Shown here: positions 9,700 to 60,596 of the stretch, piece after piece
Layout: every line of letters starts with the position of its first letter
How positions within the stretch are numbered: the stretch's first letter is position 1
From: Marinicella sp.
GTDB taxonomy: Bacteria; Pseudomonadota; Gammaproteobacteria; Xanthomonadales; Marinicellaceae
Direction: 5' to 3'
Length of the DNA: 64,000 nucleotides
Assembly (NCBI GenBank): GCA_965230295.1
Contig: OZ246001.1
Span: forward strand, 2,400,001 to 2,464,000
Notes under the pieces: model-generated
What the model was told of the DNA's origin: nothing
Database searches by the model: none
The model's input: only the letters and a program-made list of their open reading frames with translations
Position numbers and translations under genes: made by a program

Positions 9700-10248
9700 T
9701 CAGCCAAATGAACCACTGAATAAGCCATCACTTTTGATGCGATCATCCAATACATCAAAACCACCCTTACTTAAGCGGTCGGTATTGGTTTCAAACTCAA
9801 TGGCATTGATGACATCTCCATGCGCCATATTTTGTGGCATGGGAATGTTGGTTTGATTTTGTTGGTTAAGCTGACTGATTTCAGGGATGGCAACAACCAT
9901 GGCAAAGGCAAAGGCCAAGGTGGCTACCGAAGTTTTTAAAGGCGTTTCCATGCCCAAAAAACTGAACCACGAACGTCTTGAGTTTTCAATGGCATCAGCC
10001 ATAACATGACTCCAATCTTTCAGCGCCATTGCACCTTTCATGGCCTGGGCACTGTCGTGGTCACTGATCAAGTCCTCTACATGACTCAAACGAGTTGATG
10101 AAGCGGCAGTGGCAGCATAACAATCATGTGCATCACTACTGGCAGTGTGCTTTTTACTGTTGTTTTGAAACAGTTCAGCCAATTGTTTTTCGGTTAATTT
10201 TATGCCTTTGTCTTTCATCTTTATCACACTCGGTTCAATCAATTTCAT
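9700..10248 (-). CDS. Putative single-pass anti-sigma factor with a repeated acidic-aromatic C-terminal tail
   Basis: Overlaps the ECF sigma stop; one TM helix (SVATLAFAFAMVVAI); tail contains DVINAIEFE, DRLSKGGFD, DGLFSGSFG. Confidence 0.7.
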   Translation of the reverse strand: MKLIEPSVIKMKDKGIKLTEKQLAELFQNNSKKHTASSDAHDCYAATAASSTRLSHVEDLISDHDSAQAMKGAMALKDWSHVMADAIENSRRSWFSFLGMETPLKTSVATLAFAFAMVVAIPEISQLNQQNQTNIPMPQNMAHGDVINAIEFETNTDRLSKGGFDVLDDRIKSDGLFSGSFG

Positions 10249-10783
10249 AAGAAATATTCATTTTTTGCAGTTTATCTTTCAATGCCGCCATGGCTCTTTT
10301 AGATAAATTTTCTGCTTTGTAAAACGGCCATCCTGTTATTTCGGCCATTTCTTTAACTGAGTAGCCTTGTAGTCTCAGCTTGACCGCTACTCGACGACTT
10401 TCGGGTAATGTTTCTATGGCTTCAAGCACCTGTTGTTGGACTTCATGGTCTATAACGGTTTGATCTGGTTCAGCTTCTTGGCTGACCAAATCGGCTTGAT
10501 AACCTTGTTCATCACTGTCTTGTCCGGGTAAAGCGACATCTTGCGTATGTCTTTTGTGCTTTCTGGCCAGATCAATGATGACATTAGCCGCAGTTCTGTA
10601 TATATAAGACGAGAGGTTGTCTATTTCTCGGTCACTTTCTAGAATTTTTATTAATCGAATGGAAACTTCTTGATAAACATCATCGGCTGTAACCCCGATG
10701 ATTTGGATGTTTTTGCTGTAAACGGCCTGCTCAATCAAGTGTTGATGCTGGTGAAAAATTTTTTCAAGTTTGCGTTTGTTCAC
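10235..10783 (-). CDS. ECF sigma-70 factor
   Basis: Region 2 ADDVYQEV...SYIYRTAANVIIDLARK; region 4 LPESRRVAVKLRLQGYSVKEMAEITG. Confidence 0.9.
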   Translation of the reverse strand: MNKRKLEKIFHQHQHLIEQAVYSKNIQIIGVTADDVYQEVSIRLIKILESDREIDNLSSYIYRTAANVIIDLARKHKRHTQDVALPGQDSDEQGYQADLVSQEAEPDQTVIDHEVQQQVLEAIETLPESRRVAVKLRLQGYSVKEMAEITGWPFYKAENLSKRAMAALKDKLQKMNISYEID

Positions 10784-10788
10784 CGTAT

Positions 10789-12348
10789 TTACCAGGCATC
10801 AATAAAAGATAAAATAACACCCTTGGTATTCAATAAGGCATGTTTCTTGGCATATTGTATCGCAGTGAATCCTTGTTTGTTCACAGATTTTGGATTGGCA
10901 CCTAATTTCAACATTTCATGGACAATGTTGGCGATGTGGCTGTCATCGGCTTGATACTTCTTGCTTTTTGCCGCACCACACAAAATGTGTAAGGCCGTGT
11001 TGCCTTGCGGATTAACGGTATTGATGTCTAGCCCATTTTGGTGAATCAGGCGCAAGGTGGCTTTGGCTTTGGCGGTGTTGCCATAATATTCTGCAGCGAT
11101 GGCCACATTGTGATAAAGAGACATGCCAGCTTCATCTTGGGTATTGATGTCAGCACCGGCTTCTAGCAACATGTTGACACAAGCCTCACTCCATTGTGTT
11201 GCGGCCAGTGATAACAGTGGATAACCGCCTGGACCGGTCGCATTGCTTTGTGCGCCATGACTGAGTAACAAGCCAACCAAGGACCGGGAATTGCTGATGA
11301 TGGCACTGGAAAGTGGTGAGCTGCCATTATCCGAACGGTGATCAACATTGGCGTTGTTTTGAATCAAATAGGATGCCACGGCTCGGTGCCCCTTACCGGC
11401 GGCGTGAATCAGTCCGGTACAGCCTTTTGCATCAGTGATGTCTATGGATACGCCCTTGACTTTGAGTTTGTTGATGCGTCCCAGGTTCCCTTCTGTGATG
11501 GCAGCAAACCACTGTGTGCTGTGATCTTTGCTGACTGTTGGAGGAGGAGAACTGACTGTTTGGATTTCATTGTTGTCAGGCTTTGGTGTTTCCTGAATGT
11601 CATTGGTGATTTGATCGTCAGCGGTTAAAAATAAAGGCAATTCCATCTGTTTATCGGCTTCTATTTTGGTCACCAACAACTTGAATATGGCTGGGAATTT
11701 TTTCTCAGCAACGCTGTAAGCAGATTTTCCCCGGTGGTTTTTTGTCGTGCAGTCTACATTGTGCTCCAGCAGGGTTTTGATCAGTTTGGTGTTGGGGTTG
11801 GGCTGTTGCATGGCAATCAGCAAAGCATTGTCACCTTGCTGATTGCAGTGATGGACGTCTGTTTGTTGGGCTATCAGTAATTCAACAATTGGGTTTGATT
11901 GACTGATGACAGCATCTAAATAAGCATTCATGCCATGGTTGTCAGTGGCGGCCAAATCGTCATTGTTTTTAATCAAGTACCTGACTTTTTTCTCATGGCC
12001 CAATAAACAGGCTGTCATCAGTGCTGTGCGACCATTTTTATCAGTCGCTTCCAAGTCACCCGTGTGGGCAAACACCAACTCCAGGCCTTGGGTCATGTCT
12101 TTCTTGTATTGGGTGGCTGCTATCAGAGGCGGGCAGTGGCTTTCTTGCGGAACCATCTGATTGCTTAACAGGTGTTTGGCAATTTTCCATCGCCCATGTT
12201 TGAGTGCTACATTCAAGGGTGCAAAGTCCGGATGGTTCACTTCCTCAATGCCTAACCCTTGATCCATCAAATCAAGCAATTGACTCAATTGTCCTTGGCG
12301 ACAACAAGACAATATTTTCTTGGCGGCATCTGAGAGGGGTTGATTCAC
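10789..12348 (-). CDS. Ankyrin-repeat protein with two repeat blocks joined by a linker
   Basis: Repeats GRTALMTA, GDNALLIA, GCTGLIHAA, GSSPLSSA, GNTALHIL. Confidence 0.9.
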   Translation of the reverse strand: MNQPLSDAAKKILSCCRQGQLSQLLDLMDQGLGIEEVNHPDFAPLNVALKHGRWKIAKHLLSNQMVPQESHCPPLIAATQYKKDMTQGLELVFAHTGDLEATDKNGRTALMTACLLGHEKKVRYLIKNNDDLAATDNHGMNAYLDAVISQSNPIVELLIAQQTDVHHCNQQGDNALLIAMQQPNPNTKLIKTLLEHNVDCTTKNHRGKSAYSVAEKKFPAIFKLLVTKIEADKQMELPLFLTADDQITNDIQETPKPDNNEIQTVSSPPPTVSKDHSTQWFAAITEGNLGRINKLKVKGVSIDITDAKGCTGLIHAAGKGHRAVASYLIQNNANVDHRSDNGSSPLSSAIISNSRSLVGLLLSHGAQSNATGPGGYPLLSLAATQWSEACVNMLLEAGADINTQDEAGMSLYHNVAIAAEYYGNTAKAKATLRLIHQNGLDINTVNPQGNTALHILCGAAKSKKYQADDSHIANIVHEMLKLGANPKSVNKQGFTAIQYAKKHALLNTKGVILSFIDAW

Positions 12349-12404: not shown

Positions 12405-13727
12405 TCAATTGAATGTCAGTGTCGCAGATAATCCCGTGGTGTTGTTGCGTTTTATTTCGATGTCCCAATTATACAGGTCACAAAGTCGTTTGACGATAGC
12501 TAATCCCAATCCCGATCCTTTGCTGTTGGGTTTTCCTGCCCGATAATGGCGGTCAAATAACTTGGGCAGCTCAGATTCAGTGACACCAATGCCTTCATCT
12601 TGTACTGTGACACTGTTTTTATTAAGGATGATATGAACGGTGCCTTCTGTGGTGTATTTGATGGCGTTGCCTATCAAGTTACTGAGCACCACTGACACAA
12701 CTGATTCAGGTGCTTTAACTTGTAACCAATCATTTTCAGTGATCCTGGTTTTTACAGGTTTGAGTTTCAAAGTGGGTTCAAATCCATCAATGATGTTTTT
12801 GATGATTTGGCCTGGCTGGGTCCTTTCATGCCCTGGATGTTCTTTGCGTTCTTCTCTGGCCAACAACAACAGTGTTTCAGTCAATTCTGTGGACTGTTTG
12901 GTGGCACGTTCAATCCGATCAATGCGGTCCAGCTCTTTGCTGGATATGTTGGGGTTTGATTTGATGAGTTCTACAGTGCTGCGTATCACAGTCAGCGGGG
13001 TTCTCAGTTCGTGACTGACATCGGCATTGAATTCTTTGTCTCTGATCACATAGTCAGTTAGTTTTTGTGCGTAGGCATCCAAGGCCTTGGCCACTTGACC
13101 GACTTCGTCATCGTGAAAGTTAGGAGCCAAAGGCTCTAAATGGGTGTCTGCATCCAAGTTCTCTAACATCGCAGCCAGTCTACTCAGTGGTTTGAGGGCT
13201 TTTTTCGATACATAGATGGCCAGTATATATGCCAGTAATAAAAACACCAAAAACATCGCAGTGAAAACCAGAAACAAGGGTTGGGAACTGCTGTCGATAT
13301 GACTGATGTCATTTTTTATGAAGCCCCAAACCGGTTGGTTATTGACCTGATGCCTTTTGTTGACCGCTACGATGAATGTCTTGTTGCCTTCTGTTAATAC
13401 ATGTGTGCCTTCTGTTAAATCGCCATAATGTAAGGGTAAATCCAAATGAAACTTGGACGGTGAAGTGATGAATGCTTCAATGTTGGTTGATACCTGTTCC
13501 TCAGTCAAGATGTTTGGGTTCATGCTGAACTTGAGCATGTAAGCATCCAAGTCTTCCTGAATGGTTTGAGCAATCAAATCATTTTGCAGGCGTTGACGAA
13601 TGCTCAATGAACTGATCGCAAAGAGGGAAGTTAGCAGGGTACTGAAAGCCAGAAATCCGATGATTATCCGGCTTTTTATACTACTCCGAAAGTTCATCCG
13701 GGTCCGAAACATGGTAACCAATGCCAT
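12405..13727 (-). CDS. Sensor histidine kinase (ColS-like); true start probably a few codons downstream
   Basis: Two TMs, HAMP, H-box DVSHELRTPL, N-box NLIGNAIKY, DEGIG, GSGLGLAIV. Confidence 0.93.
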   Translation of the reverse strand: MALVTMFRTRMNFRSSIKSRIIIGFLAFSTLLTSLFAISSLSIRQRLQNDLIAQTIQEDLDAYMLKFSMNPNILTEEQVSTNIEAFITSPSKFHLDLPLHYGDLTEGTHVLTEGNKTFIVAVNKRHQVNNQPVWGFIKNDISHIDSSSQPLFLVFTAMFLVFLLLAYILAIYVSKKALKPLSRLAAMLENLDADTHLEPLAPNFHDDEVGQVAKALDAYAQKLTDYVIRDKEFNADVSHELRTPLTVIRSTVELIKSNPNISSKELDRIDRIERATKQSTELTETLLLLAREERKEHPGHERTQPGQIIKNIIDGFEPTLKLKPVKTRITENDWLQVKAPESVVSVVLSNLIGNAIKYTTEGTVHIILNKNSVTVQDEGIGVTESELPKLFDRHYRAGKPNSKGSGLGLAIVKRLCDLYNWDIEIKRNNTTGLSATLTFN

Positions 13728-14367
13728 GCCTAGTGTGAATCAGGTTCTTCTCAAAAGGTTTATCAATACTGGTTCGAAGTCCATGAATATGGACACGCAA
13801 TGAATCTGAGTCTGGCATTTCTTCACCCCAAACTTTCACTTCAAGTTCTTCTCTTGGAACCACATATGGGCTTGATTCCATCAAGATTTGCAATAATTTC
13901 AAGCCAGTCGGGTTCATTTTAATGGCTTGACCGGCACGTTTTACCGTCAAACTGTCTAAGTTATACTCCAGATCAGCCACTGTGAGTTTACGGTTCAAAT
14001 TCTGTTTCTTGCGGTTGCCCAGCACCATAACCCTGGCTTCTAATTCTTGCAAGGCAAATGGTTTCACCATGTAGTCGTCGGCACCGTATTCGAAACCTTC
14101 CAGTTTCTGTTCTAACGTATCTCTGGCCGTTAACATAATCACAGGGGTGCTTTTTTTGGCATCTTTGCGTAACTTCTTACACAAATCCAGGCCATCCATC
14201 CCTGGCAGCATCAAGTCTAAAATGATGACATCAAAATCATTGGTCACAGCCAAATGTAATCCGGTCACACCATCACCAGCGTAATCGACAATATGATCTC
14301 GGTCTTCAAAATAATCGACAATGTTCGCAGCAATGTCGGTGTTGTCTTCAACTACTAATATTTTCAT
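13681..14367 (-). CDS. OmpR-family response regulator (ColR-like)
   Basis: LVVEDN, LDLMLPGMDG, GADDYMVKPF, winged helix SDSLRVHIHGLR...HTRHGIGY. Confidence 0.93.
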   Translation of the reverse strand: MKILVVEDNTDIAANIVDYFEDRDHIVDYAGDGVTGLHLAVTNDFDVIILDLMLPGMDGLDLCKKLRKDAKKSTPVIMLTARDTLEQKLEGFEYGADDYMVKPFALQELEARVMVLGNRKKQNLNRKLTVADLEYNLDSLTVKRAGQAIKMNPTGLKLLQILMESSPYVVPREELEVKVWGEEMPDSDSLRVHIHGLRTSIDKPFEKNLIHTRHGIGYHVSDPDELSE

Positions 14368-49745: not shown

Positions 49746-52025
49746 ATGACTTTAAAACGGTCTTACCACACCGCCATGAAATACCATGTCCACTTCCCAC
49801 TCTTTGTTTGGTTTCTGTTGGCCAGTTTTCAACTACAGGGAGCTGAGGAACAATGGGTGAAAATCAATCACCCCAGTCTTGCCACCCAGGCAGCTTTATC
49901 TGACCAAGGTATACACTATGAAAATTTCATTTGGATCAACAAAGCTACACTCAGTGCAACCAATCTAGCCATCGAATCACAGGTGATCAATCAACCCTTC
50001 AGTTACAGGATAGATGACCAATGGCTGGATTTAAGCTTTACCAGACTGCCTCCCACACCTTGGTATTTGGGGGCACAGACCGTCGGAGAAGATTTTTATT
50101 TGGTACAGTTTGCCGGGCCTATCAAGTCAAGCTGGCTACGAAATGTCAAGGCACACCAAGTCAAGCTGATCAGTCCTTTGGCACCATTCTCATGGATTGT
50201 GTGGGGCAATCCTGGCCAATTGGAACATCTGGAACGTGAGAAGCAAGTCAGAAAGGTATATCCTTTTTTTCCTGCCTTTCGTGTTCAACGCGAAAACAGG
50301 TCATTACCTGATCAGGCCATACCGACCATGGCTCTGGTTTACCAGGGAATTCAGGCACAAATCATGATTCAACTACAAAAACTGGGTGTAGTGATTGAAC
50401 AGGTGAACCCCATCAACGACCAATTATCTGCCATCACTTTCACCGTCAAAGGTAATCAATACTTGAAATTGGCTCAAACCCCAGGGATATTAACTGTACA
50501 ACAAATTCATCAGGATGGAGGCGCTCGAGGAGAAATGAGTCAGCAGTCCATTGTAGGGAATTATGATGACAGCAACCAGGTTCAAACTGGATATGCCACT
50601 TGGCTTAGTGACACAGGATTGGATGGTTCTGGTGTCACAGTTGCAGTGGTAGATGGCGGTATTTATCAAAATCACCCTGATCTCAGTAATGTCATTCAAT
50701 GTGTGGGTGATGGTGACAGTTGTGCTGACAGCAATGATTCGCATGGCACCCATGTGGCAGGGGCCATCGGGGGTACTGGTGTGGCCAATTCACTGAATGC
50801 GGCAGGTTTTAACCGCGGTTTGGGTGTGGCCCCTGGTGTGCAAATCGTTGAACAGCTGTATGGTCCTTTGTTAGGCGGTGGCCCTGGTGGCATGGTTGCA
50901 GGAGGGATGCTGTCTATATATAAAGATTCAGCCACCAGTGGTGCTTTATTGAGTAACAATTCCTGGGGGCCAACTGGTACGCCACAAGGTTATGACATCC
51001 CCACCATGGAAGTGGATATGATCAGTCGGGATGCCAATCCTGATGAGCCAGGTAATCAACCTGTTTTGGCTGTTTGGTCCATCATGAATGGCAATGGTGA
51101 TCGCAATTCCGGATCATGTGCGCCTTCTTCATTGGGTTCACCTGATGAAGCCAAGAACTTGTTCGCGGTGGGTTCGACCAAATTACAAAATTCCAATGCA
51201 ACCCAGATCTCGGCAATCTTTGATGTGTCATCCAACAGTGCCCATGGCCCTGCTTGTGATGGGCGCCTGGTCCCGCATATTGTGGCCCCGGGTTGCCGCA
51301 CTGAGGCACCTGATAGCAGCACTGGATATGGTATGAAATGCGGAACATCTATGGCATCGCCTGTGATGTCAGGGTCGATTGCCTTGTTCTGGGAAAAATA
51401 CCGCTCCCGATATACAGTTGATCCAAGTCCTGCTTTAATCAAGGCTGTGTTCACCGCAGTGGCAGATAATTTAAATGGCCAGGATAATGCCGATGGTAAC
51501 CCCATTGGGCATGCACCAGATCGACAACAAGGTTGGGGTCGGGTAAACCTGGATGTGGTCATCAATTCATTTGCTGAATTTTGGTTCCATGACCAAGTCA
51601 CTGTATTCACCGATTCAGGACAGAACTGGCAACAAAGCGTTGCCCCCATCAATCCTGAACTACCCATCAGGGTGATGTTGGTTTGGACTGATGCACCTGG
51701 TGCTGGTTTAGGTGGCACCAACCCTGCATGGGTCAATGATCTGGATTTAACAGTTACCACAAATGTGGACTATTTGGGCAATCAATTTGGTTCAGACAGC
51801 TATTCAACCACCGGAGGATTGGCAGATGACAAGAACAATATGGAAGCGGTCTTTCTAACCGCTGATCAACACATGGGGCAGAAAATCGGCATTGAAGTGA
51901 TGGCCAGTAACATTGCTGCCGATGCATTGAACCCTTTCAATCCCGATGCACCACAACAGGATTTTGCTTTGGTCTGTTTTAACTGTTTTGATAACGACCT
52001 CATCTTTATGGATGGGTACGATTAA
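49746..52025 (+). CDS. Secreted subtilisin-like S8 peptidase (Kp43-like) with C-terminal DLIFMDGYD tag; start may be 49776
   Basis: Triad VAVVDGG, SHGTHVAG, GTSMASP; SNNSWG; LVWTDAPG and VNDLDL C-domain; QDFALV. Confidence 0.93.
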   Translation: MTLKRSYHTAMKYHVHFPLFVWFLLASFQLQGAEEQWVKINHPSLATQAALSDQGIHYENFIWINKATLSATNLAIESQVINQPFSYRIDDQWLDLSFTRLPPTPWYLGAQTVGEDFYLVQFAGPIKSSWLRNVKAHQVKLISPLAPFSWIVWGNPGQLEHLEREKQVRKVYPFFPAFRVQRENRSLPDQAIPTMALVYQGIQAQIMIQLQKLGVVIEQVNPINDQLSAITFTVKGNQYLKLAQTPGILTVQQIHQDGGARGEMSQQSIVGNYDDSNQVQTGYATWLSDTGLDGSGVTVAVVDGGIYQNHPDLSNVIQCVGDGDSCADSNDSHGTHVAGAIGGTGVANSLNAAGFNRGLGVAPGVQIVEQLYGPLLGGGPGGMVAGGMLSIYKDSATSGALLSNNSWGPTGTPQGYDIPTMEVDMISRDANPDEPGNQPVLAVWSIMNGNGDRNSGSCAPSSLGSPDEAKNLFAVGSTKLQNSNATQISAIFDVSSNSAHGPACDGRLVPHIVAPGCRTEAPDSSTGYGMKCGTSMASPVMSGSIALFWEKYRSRYTVDPSPALIKAVFTAVADNLNGQDNADGNPIGHAPDRQQGWGRVNLDVVINSFAEFWFHDQVTVFTDSGQNWQQSVAPINPELPIRVMLVWTDAPGAGLGGTNPAWVNDLDLTVTTNVDYLGNQFGSDSYSTTGGLADDKNNMEAVFLTADQHMGQKIGIEVMASNIAADALNPFNPDAPQQDFALVCFNCFDNDLIFMDGYD

Positions 52026-53240: not shown

Positions 53241-54491
53241 ATGAAAGCCAAGTATTTATTGTTACTGATGATGGTTAAACCTTTATCAGCTGCAGAGTTG
53301 ACCATACCCAACACATTCAGCCCCAACACACCGGCCAGGTCCAGTGAAGTGAATGATAACTTCAGCGCCATTGAAGCATCAGTTGATGACAACGACAGCC
53401 GTATAGACACACTGGAAGGCTTGGTGGCAACCATGCAGTCTCAGATTGCAGCTTTACAAGCTCAAAATACCCAGCAACAAGCCACCATCAACGCCCTCCA
53501 AAACAACTCAGTCCTGGCTTTAGATGGGTTATTGACGCTGGGAACATATGATGGGTATGACACAGCCATTTTTGATGGGGTTAATGTGCAAGTCCTCAAT
53601 GGAGCAGATGTGAGTCCTAATGACACAGTGATCAATGGTTTGGGAAATTTAATCATTGGTTATAACTGGGACAATGTGGTGCTACCTGGCGCTTTTTGTT
53701 CCAATGGCCAATATGACGACCAAACAGACTGCCAAAACAATGGCCATATCTGGGGCGCTCACCAGCATTCCGGTTCGCATAATCTGGTCATGGGGACCGG
53801 CAACTCCTACGTTTCAGGTGGTGCCATTGTGGCTGGGAAATTCAATATTTCAAACAGCAGTTATGGCAGTGTTTTGGGTGGCTCTACCAATCGAGTCAGG
53901 GATGTTGATTCAGTGATTGTGGGTGGGTCGCAAAATTTAATCTCCGAAGATGATGCGGTGATTCTGGGAGGTAAGGACAACACAGTTGATGGCAACCACG
54001 GCACCATCGTAGGGGGTGAAGACAATGTGGTCAGTGGCAGTTATGCCAGTATCACCAGCGGTTATCAAAATCAGGCAACGGCCAGTCGGTCCAGCGTCAC
54101 TGGTGGCCGGCAAAACCAAGCCATACAAGCCTACAGCAGCGTCCATGGTGGTTTTGCTAATACGGCAAGTGGCAATTACACTGCAGTTTCAGGTGGCAGA
54201 GACAATGTTGCCTTTGGCCAATACGCGGTGGTCAGTGGTGGTTGGGAGAATACGGCCCAAGGTGAGTACAGCGCCATTCTGGGTGGTGAAAACAACACGA
54301 CCAATGGCAGACAGTCGGTGATTACAGGCGGTTTCATTAACATTACAGGCGTGTCTGCTACCTGGTCTTCGGTCACTGGTGGCAGGTCTAACCAAACCAT
54401 TGGGACCGAATCAACCGTCAGTGGCGGGTTCAATCGCGATGCCTTTGGTAGTGCCGATTGGGTGGCAGGATCTTTGTTCGAAGATGACTGA
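53241..54491 (+). CDS. Secreted fibre-like protein: IPNTF...EVNDNF N-domain, coiled coil, 15-aa beta-helix repeats
   Basis: GAGGAG RBS before ATG 53241; signal peptide; heptad stretch RIDTLEGLVATMQSQIAALQAQNTQQQATINALQ; about 13 SVxGGxxNxAxG repeats. Confidence 0.8.
   Translation: MKAKYLLLLMMVKPLSAAELTIPNTFSPNTPARSSEVNDNFSAIEASVDDNDSRIDTLEGLVATMQSQIAALQAQNTQQQATINALQNNSVLALDGLLTLGTYDGYDTAIFDGVNVQVLNGADVSPNDTVINGLGNLIIGYNWDNVVLPGAFCSNGQYDDQTDCQNNGHIWGAHQHSGSHNLVMGTGNSYVSGGAIVAGKFNISNSSYGSVLGGSTNRVRDVDSVIVGGSQNLISEDDAVILGGKDNTVDGNHGTIVGGEDNVVSGSYASITSGYQNQATASRSSVTGGRQNQAIQAYSSVHGGFANTASGNYTAVSGGRDNVAFGQYAVVSGGWENTAQGEYSAILGGENNTTNGRQSVITGGFINITGVSATWSSVTGGRSNQTIGTESTVSGGFNRDAFGSADWVAGSLFEDD
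53860..54455 (+). repeat. Tandem 15-residue (45-bp) S/A-V/I-x-G-G-x-x-N repeats (approximate bounds)
   Basis: e.g. DAVILGGKDNTVDG, YSSVHGGFANTASG, YAVVSGGWENTAQG, YSAILGGENNTTNG. Confidence 0.85.
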
Positions 54492-54504
54492 TTCGGAGCT
54501 GATC

Positions 54505-54921
54505 ATGAACTTAAAGACTAAAATAATCATGGGTATGTGCTTGATGGTTTCCGTGGGTACCTCAATGGCCAATGACTTGATTTTTAAAACCGGGTTTGAA
54601 AACCAATACGCAATCGGTGGTCAGGTGAATGGTTTAACATCTTCACCTTTGGTGTTGGAATTGATCAGTGTTTCAGGGCCTGATGAGGTCACGATAACAA
54701 CAGATGGCACCTTCTACTTTGAGCTTTTGGTCAGTGCAGGCCATGCATGGCGGGTGGAATTGAAATCGTTGCCCAGCCAACCCGGGCAACAAAGCTGCCA
54801 ATTAAGTAACAATTCCGGTAGCGCTTTGCCTGTGGGCGGGGTGAATGATGTCAATATCAATTGCCAAAACCAGGCTTGGGACTGGGATGTGATGGATTGG
54901 GATCAGGGTGGTTGGAACTAG
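54505..54921 (+). CDS. Small secreted protein: N-terminal DLIFKTGFE tag, one beta-sandwich repeat, C-terminal WDWDVMDWDQGGWN
   Basis: GGAG RBS before ATG 54505; signal peptide ending SMA; YAIGGQVNGL...P.QQ.C.L.N.SG...V.I.C module. Confidence 0.78.
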   Translation: MNLKTKIIMGMCLMVSVGTSMANDLIFKTGFENQYAIGGQVNGLTSSPLVLELISVSGPDEVTITTDGTFYFELLVSAGHAWRVELKSLPSQPGQQSCQLSNNSGSALPVGGVNDVNINCQNQAWDWDVMDWDQGGWN

Positions 54922-59645: not shown

Positions 59646-60596
59646 GTGAATATGGTGTTAAAGGTAGTCAATCAATCCAGAATGATTTGTCTGTTGGTGG
59701 TGTTTTTCAGTACAAATTCTGCGGCAAGGGGACAAGCAAACTGTGAGTATTTGCGAGACACTACCACACTGGGTGTAGAGCCTGATTATTGTATAGACAA
59801 CCCCTCCGAGTCAATCAAGTCACAGGCAACAGATTCAGTCCCTGATGTCGTTAAAAATGGAGTATCCGTACCTACCTCTTTTGGCTATGAATACAGAAGC
59901 ACAGATACCTTATTCACCCACCCTGTGAATGATTTTTCAACCCAAACAACCATAGGATCAATTCCTGATTCACTTCGAGCCATGGCTTTTAATGAATCAG
60001 CAAGTACTTTATATGCACTTGAAAATAATGCCAAAGAGTTAGTCATAGTTGACCAAATAAGTGGTGGCCTTACCACTGTTGGGTCATTGACCAATCTAGA
60101 TCCAGATGATGATTTAACCGGTATCGACATCGCTCCCGATGGGACCTGTTATGTAACAAGCAGTGATGAAATGACCAACACTTTGTATACTTGTGATTTA
60201 GCCACCGGAACACTAACAGTGGTGGGCTCCCAAACCATCACGCCATTTTTGGTTGGCATAGCCGCAGATTGTGAAGGTAATTTATACGGACATGACATCG
60301 CTGCTGACAGTATTTACAGCATTGACACTTCTGATGGGTCTGCCAGCCTCATTGGTGCTACAGGCATCAATGCCAATTTCACCCAAGATTTGACGTTTGA
60401 CCGCTATTCAGGCAACTTAATCGGGTACATTTATATTGAGCAAAGTATGAATGTATACGCGCAAATCGATGTTTGTACTGGCAACGCCACGCCAATCAAT
60501 ACAGATGATCCTTTGGGTGCTTATATTGGTGCTTCCAAAACAGACTGTGCATTGACTGAATTGATTTTCAATGATGGTTTTGACTCTGGTTGTTAA
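59646..60596 (+). CDS. Secreted Cys-containing beta-propeller-like protein with C-terminal ELIFNDGFD tag
   Basis: Signal peptide; blades LVIVDQISGGLTTVG, LYTCDLATGTLTVVG, IYSIDTSDGSASLIG, YAQIDVCTGNATPI. Confidence 0.78.
   Translation: MNMVLKVVNQSRMICLLVVFFSTNSAARGQANCEYLRDTTTLGVEPDYCIDNPSESIKSQATDSVPDVVKNGVSVPTSFGYEYRSTDTLFTHPVNDFSTQTTIGSIPDSLRAMAFNESASTLYALENNAKELVIVDQISGGLTTVGSLTNLDPDDDLTGIDIAPDGTCYVTSSDEMTNTLYTCDLATGTLTVVGSQTITPFLVGIAADCEGNLYGHDIAADSIYSIDTSDGSASLIGATGINANFTQDLTFDRYSGNLIGYIYIEQSMNVYAQIDVCTGNATPINTDDPLGAYIGASKTDCALTELIFNDGFDSGC

Follow-up and report, generated by a model that had tools for sequence, protein, structure and literature searches.

The window, that is the whole stretch of DNA analysed here, comprises 64,000 nt of Marinicella sp. 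(GCA_965230295.1, contig OZ246001.1, positions 2,400,001-2,464,000 of the forward strand). It contains an ECF sigma factor gene that is followed on the reverse strand by the gene of a small membrane protein (Table 1). The sigma factor consists of region 2 (PF04542) and region 4 (PF08281) only and thus belongs to the ECF (group 4) sigma-70 factors. It matched TIGR02937 with 2.7e-21 and 75.9 bits at a cut-off of 42.9, and its closest solved structures are sigma-E (1or7), SigW, SigH and AlgU. Sigma-E, SigW and AlgU are all released through the regulated proteolysis of their anti-sigma factors.

The longest open reading frame of the downstream gene spans 9700..10248(-), and its start overlaps the stop of the sigma gene 10235..10783(-), lying 14 nt inside it. 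Since the N-termini of the orthologues are conserved (MKLTEQQL...), the ATG at 10218 is the likely true start. The two genes overlap or adjoin each other in all loci examined. An ankyrin-repeat protein gene is located 5 nt upstream of the sigma gene and is probably co-transcribed with it. This gene was kept in all 29 loci of family f1 that reach that far and was not seen beside sigma in 20 loci from other families. Downstream of the anti-sigma gene follows prmC, or prfC and others elsewhere. No ECF-type promoter was recognised by eye upstream of the ankyrin gene, the f1 sigma genes or the sigma gene in the 20 loci of other families. The DNA at the 3' end of the ankyrin gene is conserved, which reflects protein constraint because the variation sits at third codon positions.

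Table 1. Genes, protein segments and motifs in the window
Feature	Position	Strand	Basis
Ankyrin-repeat protein gene, 519 aa, no signal peptide	10789..12348	-	Pfam Ank_2 9.3e-40
ECF sigma factor gene, 182 aa	10235..10783	-	Pfam Sigma70_r2 1.2e-9, Sigma70_r4_2 8.7e-8
Anti-sigma factor gene, 172 aa + stop	9700..10218	-	likely true start ATG at 10218
Predicted cytoplasmic sigma-binding domain, residues 1-92 of the 172-aa form	9943..10218	-	four predicted helices (AF2, sigma complex model)
Single transmembrane helix, residues 94-118	9865..9939	-	AF2 helix
Q/N/P-rich linker	9817..9864	-	alignment A1 columns ~130-155; pLDDT < 50
Repeat 1, DVINAIEFE	9790..9816	-	PSSM 2.0 bits, top 0.022% of background; F142 invariant in 27 orthologues
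Repeat 2, DRLSKGGFD	9754..9780	-	PSSM 0.5 bits, top 0.035%; D147 and F154 conserved in at least 90%
Repeat 3, DGLFSGSFG, extreme C-terminus	9703..9729	-	PSSM -0.5 bits, top 0.049%; D164 and F171 invariant
DRIKSDGLF, not a real repeat	9718..9744	-	PSSM -5.5 bits; stretch not conserved
Tag DLIFMDGYD-stop	51996..52022	+	C-terminus of S8 subtilase 49746..52025
Tag ELIFNDGFD, then SGC-stop	60558..60584	+	DUF6923/DUF4394 protein 59646..60596
Tag DLIFKTGFE	54574..54600	+	directly after the signal peptide, N-terminus of a mature small protein

Architecture of the anti-sigma factor

The product of the downstream gene was modelled in a complex with the sigma factor. The median score of three runs was 0.76, compared to 0.00 for the best of three controls, and 58 of 80 solved complexes but only 2 of 110 mismatched pairs attain the mark that was applied; since ECF sigma/anti-sigma complexes have already been solved, likeness to them may account for part of the score. 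The runs agreed in at least 87% of the contacts with a partner pLDDT of at least 76, and the modelled contacts touch the sigma factor in region 2 (57-77) and region 4 (128-153). The model is supportive of the protein being the partner of the sigma factor and acting as its anti-sigma.

The AF2 monomer model has a low confidence (mean pLDDT 56.5) and was used only for the layout of helices and disorder. It places the helices of the N-terminal domain at residues 10-23, 30-38, 41-51 and 54-87. The single transmembrane helix and the Q/N-rich linker, both described in the first-pass annotation, were recovered, with proline as a further major residue of the linker. Arg/Lys residues flank the transmembrane helix on its N-side and Glu/Gln residues on its C-side, so that the positive-inside rule predicts an N-in, C-out topology. 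The linker varies among the orthologues in length and sequence, and only some 15-40 residues separate the membrane from the first repeat. The periplasmic tail of about 55 residues is predicted to be unstructured, with pLDDT < 50 for most of residues 120-163. Neither the tail nor the rest of the anti-sigma factor matched a Pfam or NCBIfam entry, and the whole protein had no relative in the PDB, in line with the annotated absence of a folded sensory domain from the tail.

Three known classes of anti-sigma factors were compared. A zf-HC2 zinc-binding domain was not matched in Pfam, and an HxxxCxxC motif is absent from the alignment, which has a single, partly conserved Asp-Cys. The RseA/MucA class was not indicated either, as there was no RseA_N or RseA_C match in Pfam or NCBIfam and no rseB downstream. 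For the FecR type, a FecR match in Pfam and an adjacent TonB-dependent transducer gene were both missing, and the tail is disordered. The two genes probably encode a genuine ECF sigma/single-pass anti-sigma pair, whose family is uncatalogued. Among 1.84 billion representative proteins, only 44 matched the anti-sigma factor at E<=1e-3, and tail repeats were seen by eye in 22/22 of those retrieved.

The tail repeats resemble the tags of exported proteins

About 100 Sec-exported proteins of the Marinicella genome end in D-[LV]-I-F-x-[DSN]-[GD]-F-[ED]-COOH, here termed the GFE tail. Genome-wide, 64 of 71 strict motif matches are at most 5 residues away from a C-terminus, and the DNA pattern of the tag gave 39 matches compared to 0 for its reversed control. 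The GFE tail is widespread in the order (301 genomes). In the known sorting tags, a motif is followed by a transmembrane helix and a basic end, and membrane sortases cleave these tripartite signals; the GFE tail has no transmembrane part. A tripartite signal of the PEP-CTERM, GlyGly-CTERM or LPXTG type was found neither in the tags nor in the anti-sigma tail; both stop at the motif, and there was no match to an NCBIfam sorting signal. An exosortase H-associated protein beside T2SS-A was discarded as a candidate, as it fits a few VPxP-TM-basic tails and not the GFE tag.

Three copies of D-x-[IL]-x-x-x-x-F-[DEG] are conserved in the anti-sigma tail, and the third one is at the C-terminus, directly followed by the stop codon at 9700-9702. 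The first-pass annotation had listed three to four tandem copies between 9703 and 9816, with correct coordinates and letters. To score them, 103 C-terminal tags of the Marinicella genome were combined into a tag matrix, with 1.11 million 9-mers as the background. Three of the copies ranked first to third among the 9-mers of the anti-sigma factor, each in the top 0.02-0.05% of the background. The fourth, DRIKSDGLF, had to be rejected because 0.2% of the background 9-mers score equally and the orthologues do not have it. Among 4845 open reading frames of at least 100 aa, the anti-sigma gene was the sole one with three matrix hits inside 45 residues.

When 27 orthologues were aligned, F142, D147, F154, D164 and F171 were among the columns that vary little or not at all; these correspond to the repeat positions 1 and 8, whereas the stretches between the repeats vary in length and sequence. 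In alignment A2, which has 41 sequences, F171 alone is invariant, and the tail phenylalanines are the best-conserved positions of the anti-sigma factor. All 97 members retrieved, from ten families, have a tail with the tag-like motif, which reads D-x-[ILM]-(F)-x-x-x-F-[DEG] and is present in two to four copies across the family. At least one matrix hit was present in 86 of the 97 tails compared to 4.9% of composition-preserving shuffles, and at least two hits in 43 of 97 compared to 0.06%. The expected conservation of the repeats in the orthologues is thus borne out.

The tails and the tags differ at their ends. Only 2/97 tails end with F-[DE]-COOH, as 62/103 tags do; the others end in FG, FS, FDS, FDG and similar. 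In the genus Marinicella, Phe4 is absent from repeats 1 and 2, whereas it is present in 97/103 tags. The anti-sigma factor also departs from GFE cargo in having a cytoplasmic N-terminal domain and a transmembrane anchor, no signal peptide and three copies of the motif, the last ending in F-G. It resembles GFE-tailed cargo but is itself not cargo. The annotated mimicry of a tagged substrate is imperfect; it is supported by the string of tag-like motifs across ten families and not by the C-terminal residues or by position 4 of the first two repeats.

Co-occurrence with tags and with type II secretion

An orthologue of the anti-sigma factor was found in 23/23 genomes of the genus, in 35/36 of the family and in 129/301 of the order. 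Among the 129 carriers, 121 have at least 3 hits of the tag pattern and 8 have fewer, whereas 55 of the non-carriers have at least 3 and 117 fewer than 3; these counts rest on few independent gains and losses, as relatives share features by descent. The eight carriers with fewer than 3 tags hold true members. The proposed restriction of the pair to tagged genomes is thus nearly complete, and neither of the two computational observations that had been named as evidence against the proposal, unconserved repeats and orthologues common in untagged genomes, was made.

Carriers track the tags also inside mixed groups. The nine carriers in family f12 coincide with its tag-bearing genomes, and the anti-sigma factor was found in 0/31 of the others. 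In genus g42, G121 has both the anti-sigma factor and tags and G107 has neither, and the sole carrier in family f2 (G157) is its sole genome with 5 tags. Conversely, tags occur without the anti-sigma factor. The tag-rich family f9 had 0 true members in 15 genomes, and none was found with a wider profile in the tag-rich genomes G078 (52 tags), G286 (17) and G296 (13). In five tag-rich genomes without a member, all that this profile (A4) retrieved were anti-sigma factors of other types, whose C-terminal parts are folded.

In families f12 and f4, tags and tails seemed by eye to covary at position 3 (Ile versus Leu/Met/Val). When counted, this failed: the Ile shares of tags and tails gave a Spearman correlation of 0.25 in 81 genomes, a value overstated by kinship, and of 0.11 (p 0.63) in 22 genera. 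The count covered only the 81 genomes with at least 8 tags; 10 tails without a regex repeat were dropped and G016 was outside the sample. The failed covariation, together with the shortness and degeneracy of the motifs and the tail ends that differ from those of the tags, could suggest that the tail is a low-complexity acidic/aromatic segment which resembles the tags by chance. Such a coincidence is already disfavoured and appears most improbable in view of the shuffled controls, the unique position among the open reading frames, the invariant phenylalanine columns and the tags in the carrier genomes.

[quoted passage not shown] GspC is rare in families f2, f8 and f12; there, at least 5 tags were found in 11/13 strong GspC carriers compared to 1/103 non-carriers. 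Family f7 has GspC with a PDZ domain, yet few tags, so that the link between GspC and the tags is at best necessary and not sufficient. The presence of the PDZ domain was rejected as a discriminator since it does not separate f7 from the tag-rich families. Taken together, tags and anti-sigma factor nest within genomes that have a T2SS of the GspC(PDZ) type, which provides a new lead.

A possible tethered pseudo-substrate

The first-pass annotation had compared the anti-sigma factor to FlgM. FlgM and the ExsE- and BtrA-type regulators are treated as cargo by a secretion machine, so that traffic sets gene expression. These proteins are soluble and leave the cell, whereas the protein described here is anchored in the inner membrane and would at most be engaged, not exported. 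The FlgM analogy is a poor fit for a membrane-anchored protein. The closer model is provided by RseA/RseB or FoxR/FoxA, where a partner protects the anti-sigma factor from proteolysis.

The RseA/RseB/DegS/RseP system of sigma-E and the MucA/AlgW/MucE system of AlgU likewise have a sigma factor of the same broad ECF group and a single-pass anti-sigma. In these systems, the periplasmic part decides on the proteolytic release and the input consists of short peptide motifs from envelope-bound proteins. In contrast, the anti-sigma factor found here itself carries copies of a proteome-wide motif, which ends with acidic or small and not with aromatic residues. For FoxR, it is reported that the signalling domain of FoxA binds the anti-sigma factor when no signal is present and protects it from proteolysis (PMC11637429). 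[quoted passage not shown] FoxR differs by its folded C-terminal domain and its dedicated TonB-dependent partner from the disordered tail of repeated short motifs.

We propose, with about an even chance of being right, that the tail is a tethered pseudo-substrate that competes with tagged cargo for the reader of the tag. The cytoplasmic four-helix domain would hold the sigma factor, and one and the same periplasmic reader would bind the disordered tail and the cargo tag. As long as it is bound to the reader, the tail would be shielded. An accumulation of tagged cargo that competes for the reader, or a loss of the reader, would expose the tail, which might then be cut by a site-1 protease, followed by RseP-type intramembrane proteolysis and the release of the sigma factor. 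This suggests that a decoy cargo lets the cell monitor its export traffic. We infer a shared reader, competition, proteolytic release and a regulon of the sigma factor. The regions upstream of 99 tagged genes were compared with those of 1990 long open reading frames, and no k-mer was enriched after correction for 1166 tests; the top k-mers were only AT-rich words (best p 4.8e-5 over 1166 tests). Nothing relevant on the GFE motif or on an anti-sigma factor mimicking a tag was found in the literature searched.

The pseudo-substrate reading shares its motif, conservation and co-occurrence data equally with another one, in which a periplasmic protease or tail-processing enzyme that acts on the tags as well would use the motif as its recognition site or as a degron. 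This would make the anti-sigma factor just one more substrate, and the sigma factor would report the free capacity of the enzyme and not the occupancy of a receptor. The last repeat lies 1-4 residues from the C-terminus in 89/97 tails, as expected of a C-terminal recognition site, and the nearest relatives of the sigma factor, sigma-E, SigW and AlgU, are controlled by regulated intramembrane proteolysis. However, tags also occur at mature N-termini and the tail has internal copies, so that a free carboxyl end cannot be required. We regard this explanation as unlikely.

A different role for proteolysis would fit the relatedness of the sigma factor to sigma-E and AlgU: free tags of unsecreted cargo could activate a DegS/AlgW-like PDZ protease that cuts the anti-sigma factor. 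The tail motifs would then only resemble the tags and serve another role, e.g. the binding of a protective RseB-like partner. C-terminal peptides are established activators of DegS and AlgW, and these end with an aromatic residue (Y-x-F, W-V-F). Such an end was absent here, with FG, FS and FDS in the tails and an acidic F-[ED] in the tags, unlike what DegS reads. RseA and MucA are not known to carry an activating motif themselves, and such a model would not explain why conservation in the anti-sigma factor is highest in the motif. That the loss of the T2SS causes extracytoplasmic stress in Vibrio, as reported in PMC12369372, would fit; nevertheless, we consider this explanation very unlikely.

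The reader of the pseudo-substrate was searched for among the neighbouring genes. No rseB- or rseC-like gene and no receptor gene was found adjacent to the anti-sigma gene in the loci examined. Conserved neighbours were rejected as candidates, as only the sigma gene (20/20), prfC, a CBS protein gene and a GT2 gene are shared outside f1. In G120, gspC is 5 kb away from the anti-sigma gene, with unrelated genes in between, and was likewise dismissed. From the nesting described above, the GspC(PDZ)-type T2SS is the lead candidate, though a weak one, for the machine of the reader. In sorting-tag and GspC systems, too, an envelope machine reads a C-terminal element that some of the secreted proteins have, and GspC selects part of the substrates through its PDZ domain. 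In the Vibrio T2SS, the PDZ-dependent information resides in an Ig fold and not in a linear end-tag such as the GFE tail. It is conceivable, if unlikely, that the GFE tail is a linear T2SS secretion signal and that the anti-sigma tail is a tethered pseudo-substrate which GspC, the periplasmic clamp of the system, holds in the idle state.

The tight nesting with one type of secretion system would be unexpected if the motif bound a constant component of the envelope, such as the inner leaflet of the outer membrane, LPS, peptidoglycan or Ca2+, and shared no protein reader. Cargo would then be held at the surface and the tail tethered to the envelope, and the pair would sense the integrity or spacing of the envelope and not traffic. 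This is suggested by the short, acidic-aromatic motif, which is found at either terminus or internally, and by the two to four copies, which would give avidity. Anti-sigma factors spanning both membranes are known, such as Dma (PMC10927553). The linker of the anti-sigma factor is short for reaching the outer membrane, and we judge such an anchoring to be quite unlikely.

The choice of cargo by the T2SS and other envelope sorters is a long-standing open question. With the anti-sigma tail as a tethered pseudo-substrate, a regulator made of tandem tag copies would be the first regulatory link to the GFE tail. The tail is a ready-made bait for the tag reader, as it is small, disordered, multivalent and conserved across ten families. 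Sigma-factor signalling would gain a new sensing design, in which a disordered pseudo-substrate tail replaces a folded sensor domain. A linear, transplantable T2SS signal and its feedback control would be directly testable if the T2SS lead proves right, and a dedicated ECF sigma factor would then read the free capacity of the T2SS directly.

Tag-like copies in the tail of the predicted anti-sigma factor

The window genome (4.0 Mb, one contig) uses a nine-residue tag at the ends of exported proteins. With a strict pattern, [DE][LIVM][IL]F...[FY][DE], 64 of the 71 genome matches were at most 5 residues from a C-terminus. A looser pattern turned up within the final 22 residues in 138 of 12,181 raw ORFs, not all of them genuine, versus 10 of 3092 in an internal control window. 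The tag DNA pattern gave 39 matches versus 0 with the reversed control. Signal peptides start most of the tag-bearing ORFs, and the consensus of 103 tags is D (97/103), L/V, I (90), F (97), x, D/S/N, G/D, F (100), E/D. A few tags directly follow the signal peptide, for example at window positions 54574-54600; since these stand at mature N-termini, tag reading should need no free carboxyl end. Another example of a tag at the mature N-terminus is a protein of 2340 aa encoded elsewhere in this genome. In a 427-aa exported protein (G000:C1:1123089-1124372, outside the window), the tandem tags PIIFKSGFE and DLIFATGFE are followed by 11 residues. About 5 ORFs end instead in VPxP, a TM helix and a basic tail, a separate, classical sorting signal.

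The tail of the predicted anti-sigma factor resembles this tag without copying it exactly. The first-pass annotation had described four tail peptides as 3-4 tandem copies, and each lies exactly where it was placed. Three of them are kept across 27 orthologues with the consensus D-[VI]-I-x-x-x-x-F-[DE], then D-x-L-S-x-G-x-F-D, then D-x-L-F-x-x-x-F-[GS]-stop, whereas the overlapping fourth, DRIKSDGLF, is not conserved. F142, D147, F154, D164 and F171, at repeat positions 1 and 8, belong to the small set of columns that are invariant or nearly so in the whole protein, and the Q/N-rich linker drifts freely. In an alignment of 41 sequences, the sole invariant column is the Phe of the last repeat. 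The tail was present in all 97 members fetched from ten families. In the window's genus, repeats 1 and 2 have Asn or Ser in place of Phe4 of the tag. An F-[DE]-COOH end occurs in only 2 of the 97 tails, versus 62 of the 103 tags; the last Phe is at most 4 residues from the C-terminus in 89 of the tails.

A tag matrix was derived from the 103 tags, with the anti-sigma factor excluded. Its top three 9-mers in the anti-sigma factor were the three conserved repeats, each scoring within the best 0.02-0.05% of the 1.11 million 9-mers used as background. Among 4845 ORFs of at least 100 aa, the anti-sigma factor alone had three matches within 45 residues. At least one match was found in 86/97 family tails versus 4.9% of shuffles, and at least two in 43/97 versus 0.06%. 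A covariation of tag and tail at position 3, tempting by eye, failed on counting (genus-level Spearman 0.11).

Gene layout and predicted sigma binding

The pair lies in a tightly packed minus-strand run of response regulator, histidine kinase, ankyrin protein, ECF sigma, anti-sigma ORF and prmC. The anti-sigma start was assigned from the orthologue N-termini, which read MKLTEQQL... The sigma gene was directly upstream of the anti-sigma gene in 20/20 loci from other families; an ankyrin gene beside the pair is confined to the window's family. The ankyrin protein is cytoplasmic. In one locus (L031 of genome G022), an insert of about 270 nt separates the ankyrin and sigma genes, which abut elsewhere. 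No ECF-type promoter was recognised upstream of the ankyrin gene or of sigma genes in the window's family and other families, and no enrichment was found upstream of tagged genes. In the TPR protein, about 365 residues at the N-terminal end and 155 at the C-terminal end are without annotation.

Features of the window and of the remaining window genome (G000:C1)
Feature	Position	Strand	Remarks
Anti-sigma ORF	9700..10248	-	likely start ATG at 10218, 172 aa
ECF sigma gene	10235..10783	-	Sigma70_r2 and r4_2 domains; TIGR02937 above its cut-off
Ankyrin-repeat protein gene, 519 aa	10789..12348	-	conserved immediately upstream of sigma, only in the window's family
OmpR-type regulator and kinase	12405-14367	-	precede ankyrin gene in 3/5 genera
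Small exported protein	54379-54921	+	tag at mature N-terminus, directly behind signal peptide
TPR protein, 737 aa	60796-63009	+	adjoins tagged gene; weak TPR_Slam match (8e-4)
gspC(PDZ)-D-E-F cluster	G000:C1:654370-659829 (outside window)		GspC with PDZ domain
xps-like cluster	G000:C1:857073-867919 (outside window)		E to M and 240-aa C/N-like protein (no Pfam match), then D
Exosortase H-associated membrane protein	G000:C1:868007-868615 (outside window)		NF041730, 4.5e-48; between purL-like ORF and gspE

The anti-sigma ORF had no match in Pfam or NCBIfam and nothing matching among PDB sequences (best E 0.033). An AF2 model with 27 orthologues was of low confidence (mean pLDDT 56.5) and showed four helices in the N-terminal part and another at 94-118; from residue 120 to the C-terminus it was unstructured, and pLDDT was below 50 for most of residues 120-163. 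This agrees with the earlier description of a tail without a folded sensory domain. The hydrophobic helix has basic residues on its N-terminal side and acidic or amide residues on its C-terminal side, a pattern by which the tail should face the periplasm.

When the sigma factor was modelled with anti-sigma residues 1-92, the complex scored 0.76 (median of three runs), versus 0.00 for the best of three controls. The runs agreed in at least 87% of contacts, with a partner pLDDT of at least 76, and the mark applied is reached by 58/80 solved complexes and 2/110 mismatched pairs. The modelled contacts reach sigma region 2 and region 4 alike. The model thus supports, short of proof, the assignment of ORF 9700..10248 as the anti-sigma factor; solved ECF pairs may have aided the score.

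Co-occurrence with tags

Searched with an orthologue profile, 1.84 billion representative proteins yielded only 44 matches at E<=1e-3. The 22 fetched, marginal ones included, all shared this architecture and had between two and four repeats in the tail, often nearer to the tag than in the window's genus (e.g. ...LF-x-G-D-F-E near the end). Genus g4 (L024, L028-L030, L052-L073) falls into two groups by the Ile share at tag position 3: tails have three repeats at about 90% Ile and two (xVFTANFE ... DIIYSGGFG) at about 40-55%. The wider profile of 41 sequences matched in 132 of the 301 genomes sampled from the order, or 129 after removal of three weak matches without a tail.

Tags were counted in the 301 genomes as [DE]-x-[LIVMF]-F-x-x-x-F-[DE]-stop, for which reversed-pattern controls gave mostly 0-2. 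At least 3 tags were present in 121 of the 129 carriers and in 55 non-carriers (fewer in 117), counts in which relatives are non-independent and few separate gains or losses stand behind the numbers. The mixed families are the informative cases. In f12, all nine genomes with tags and no others are carriers, the remaining 31 having neither feature; in genus g42 both features are present in one genome and absent from the other; in f2 the tags (5) and the pair are confined to G157. However, family f9 is tag-rich, yet had 0 true members in 15 genomes, and G078, G286 and G296 had no member even with a still wider profile. Conversely, eight genomes have true members but only 0-2 tags. Given exceptions in both directions, the pair looks like an accessory that lineages with tags may or may not have.

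A possible link to the type II secretion system

Two proteins of the window genome pass the family cut-off as GspD-type secretins. GspC (PF11356) was found in 146/154 genomes with at least 5 tags and in 124/129 carriers, the five exceptions being assemblies 81-90% complete. Within f12, exactly the nine genomes with tags and anti-sigma factor also have GspC. Across f2, f8 and f12, at least 5 tags were present in 11/13 strong GspC carriers versus 1/103 non-carriers. In family f7, GspC carries a PDZ domain, yet tags are few; the relation is therefore nested, the GspC-type T2SS containing the tags and these roughly containing the anti-sigma factor. It is not one-to-one, and much of it could come from shared descent. 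[quoted passage not shown] The GspC(PDZ)-type T2SS is a candidate lead to the tag reader, a hypothetical periplasmic binder.

A tail that may act as a tethered pseudo-substrate

The sigma/anti-sigma framework is already known. The anti-sigma family, its tail of proteome-wide end-tag copies and the association with tags and T2SS type appear undescribed in Pfam, NCBIfam, PDB and the literature searched, supplements aside. The likeness of tail and tag could also reflect a shared protease acting on both or an envelope chemistry common to the two; a third rival reading is DegS-like activation. A tethered pseudo-substrate would most simply account for a tail that is disordered, multivalent and tag-like, and we give this reading about an even chance. 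As such, the tail would be held and shielded by an idle tag reader. RseA is shielded from proteolysis by a partner, which resembles this proposed protection. The same resemblance holds for the FoxR anti-sigma factor, also described as shielded by its partner (PMC11637429). The capped or altered last residue of the tail would be in keeping with a ligand that has to be bound but not handed on. Tagged cargo would compete with the tail for the reader; once exposed, the tail would be degraded and the sigma factor set free.
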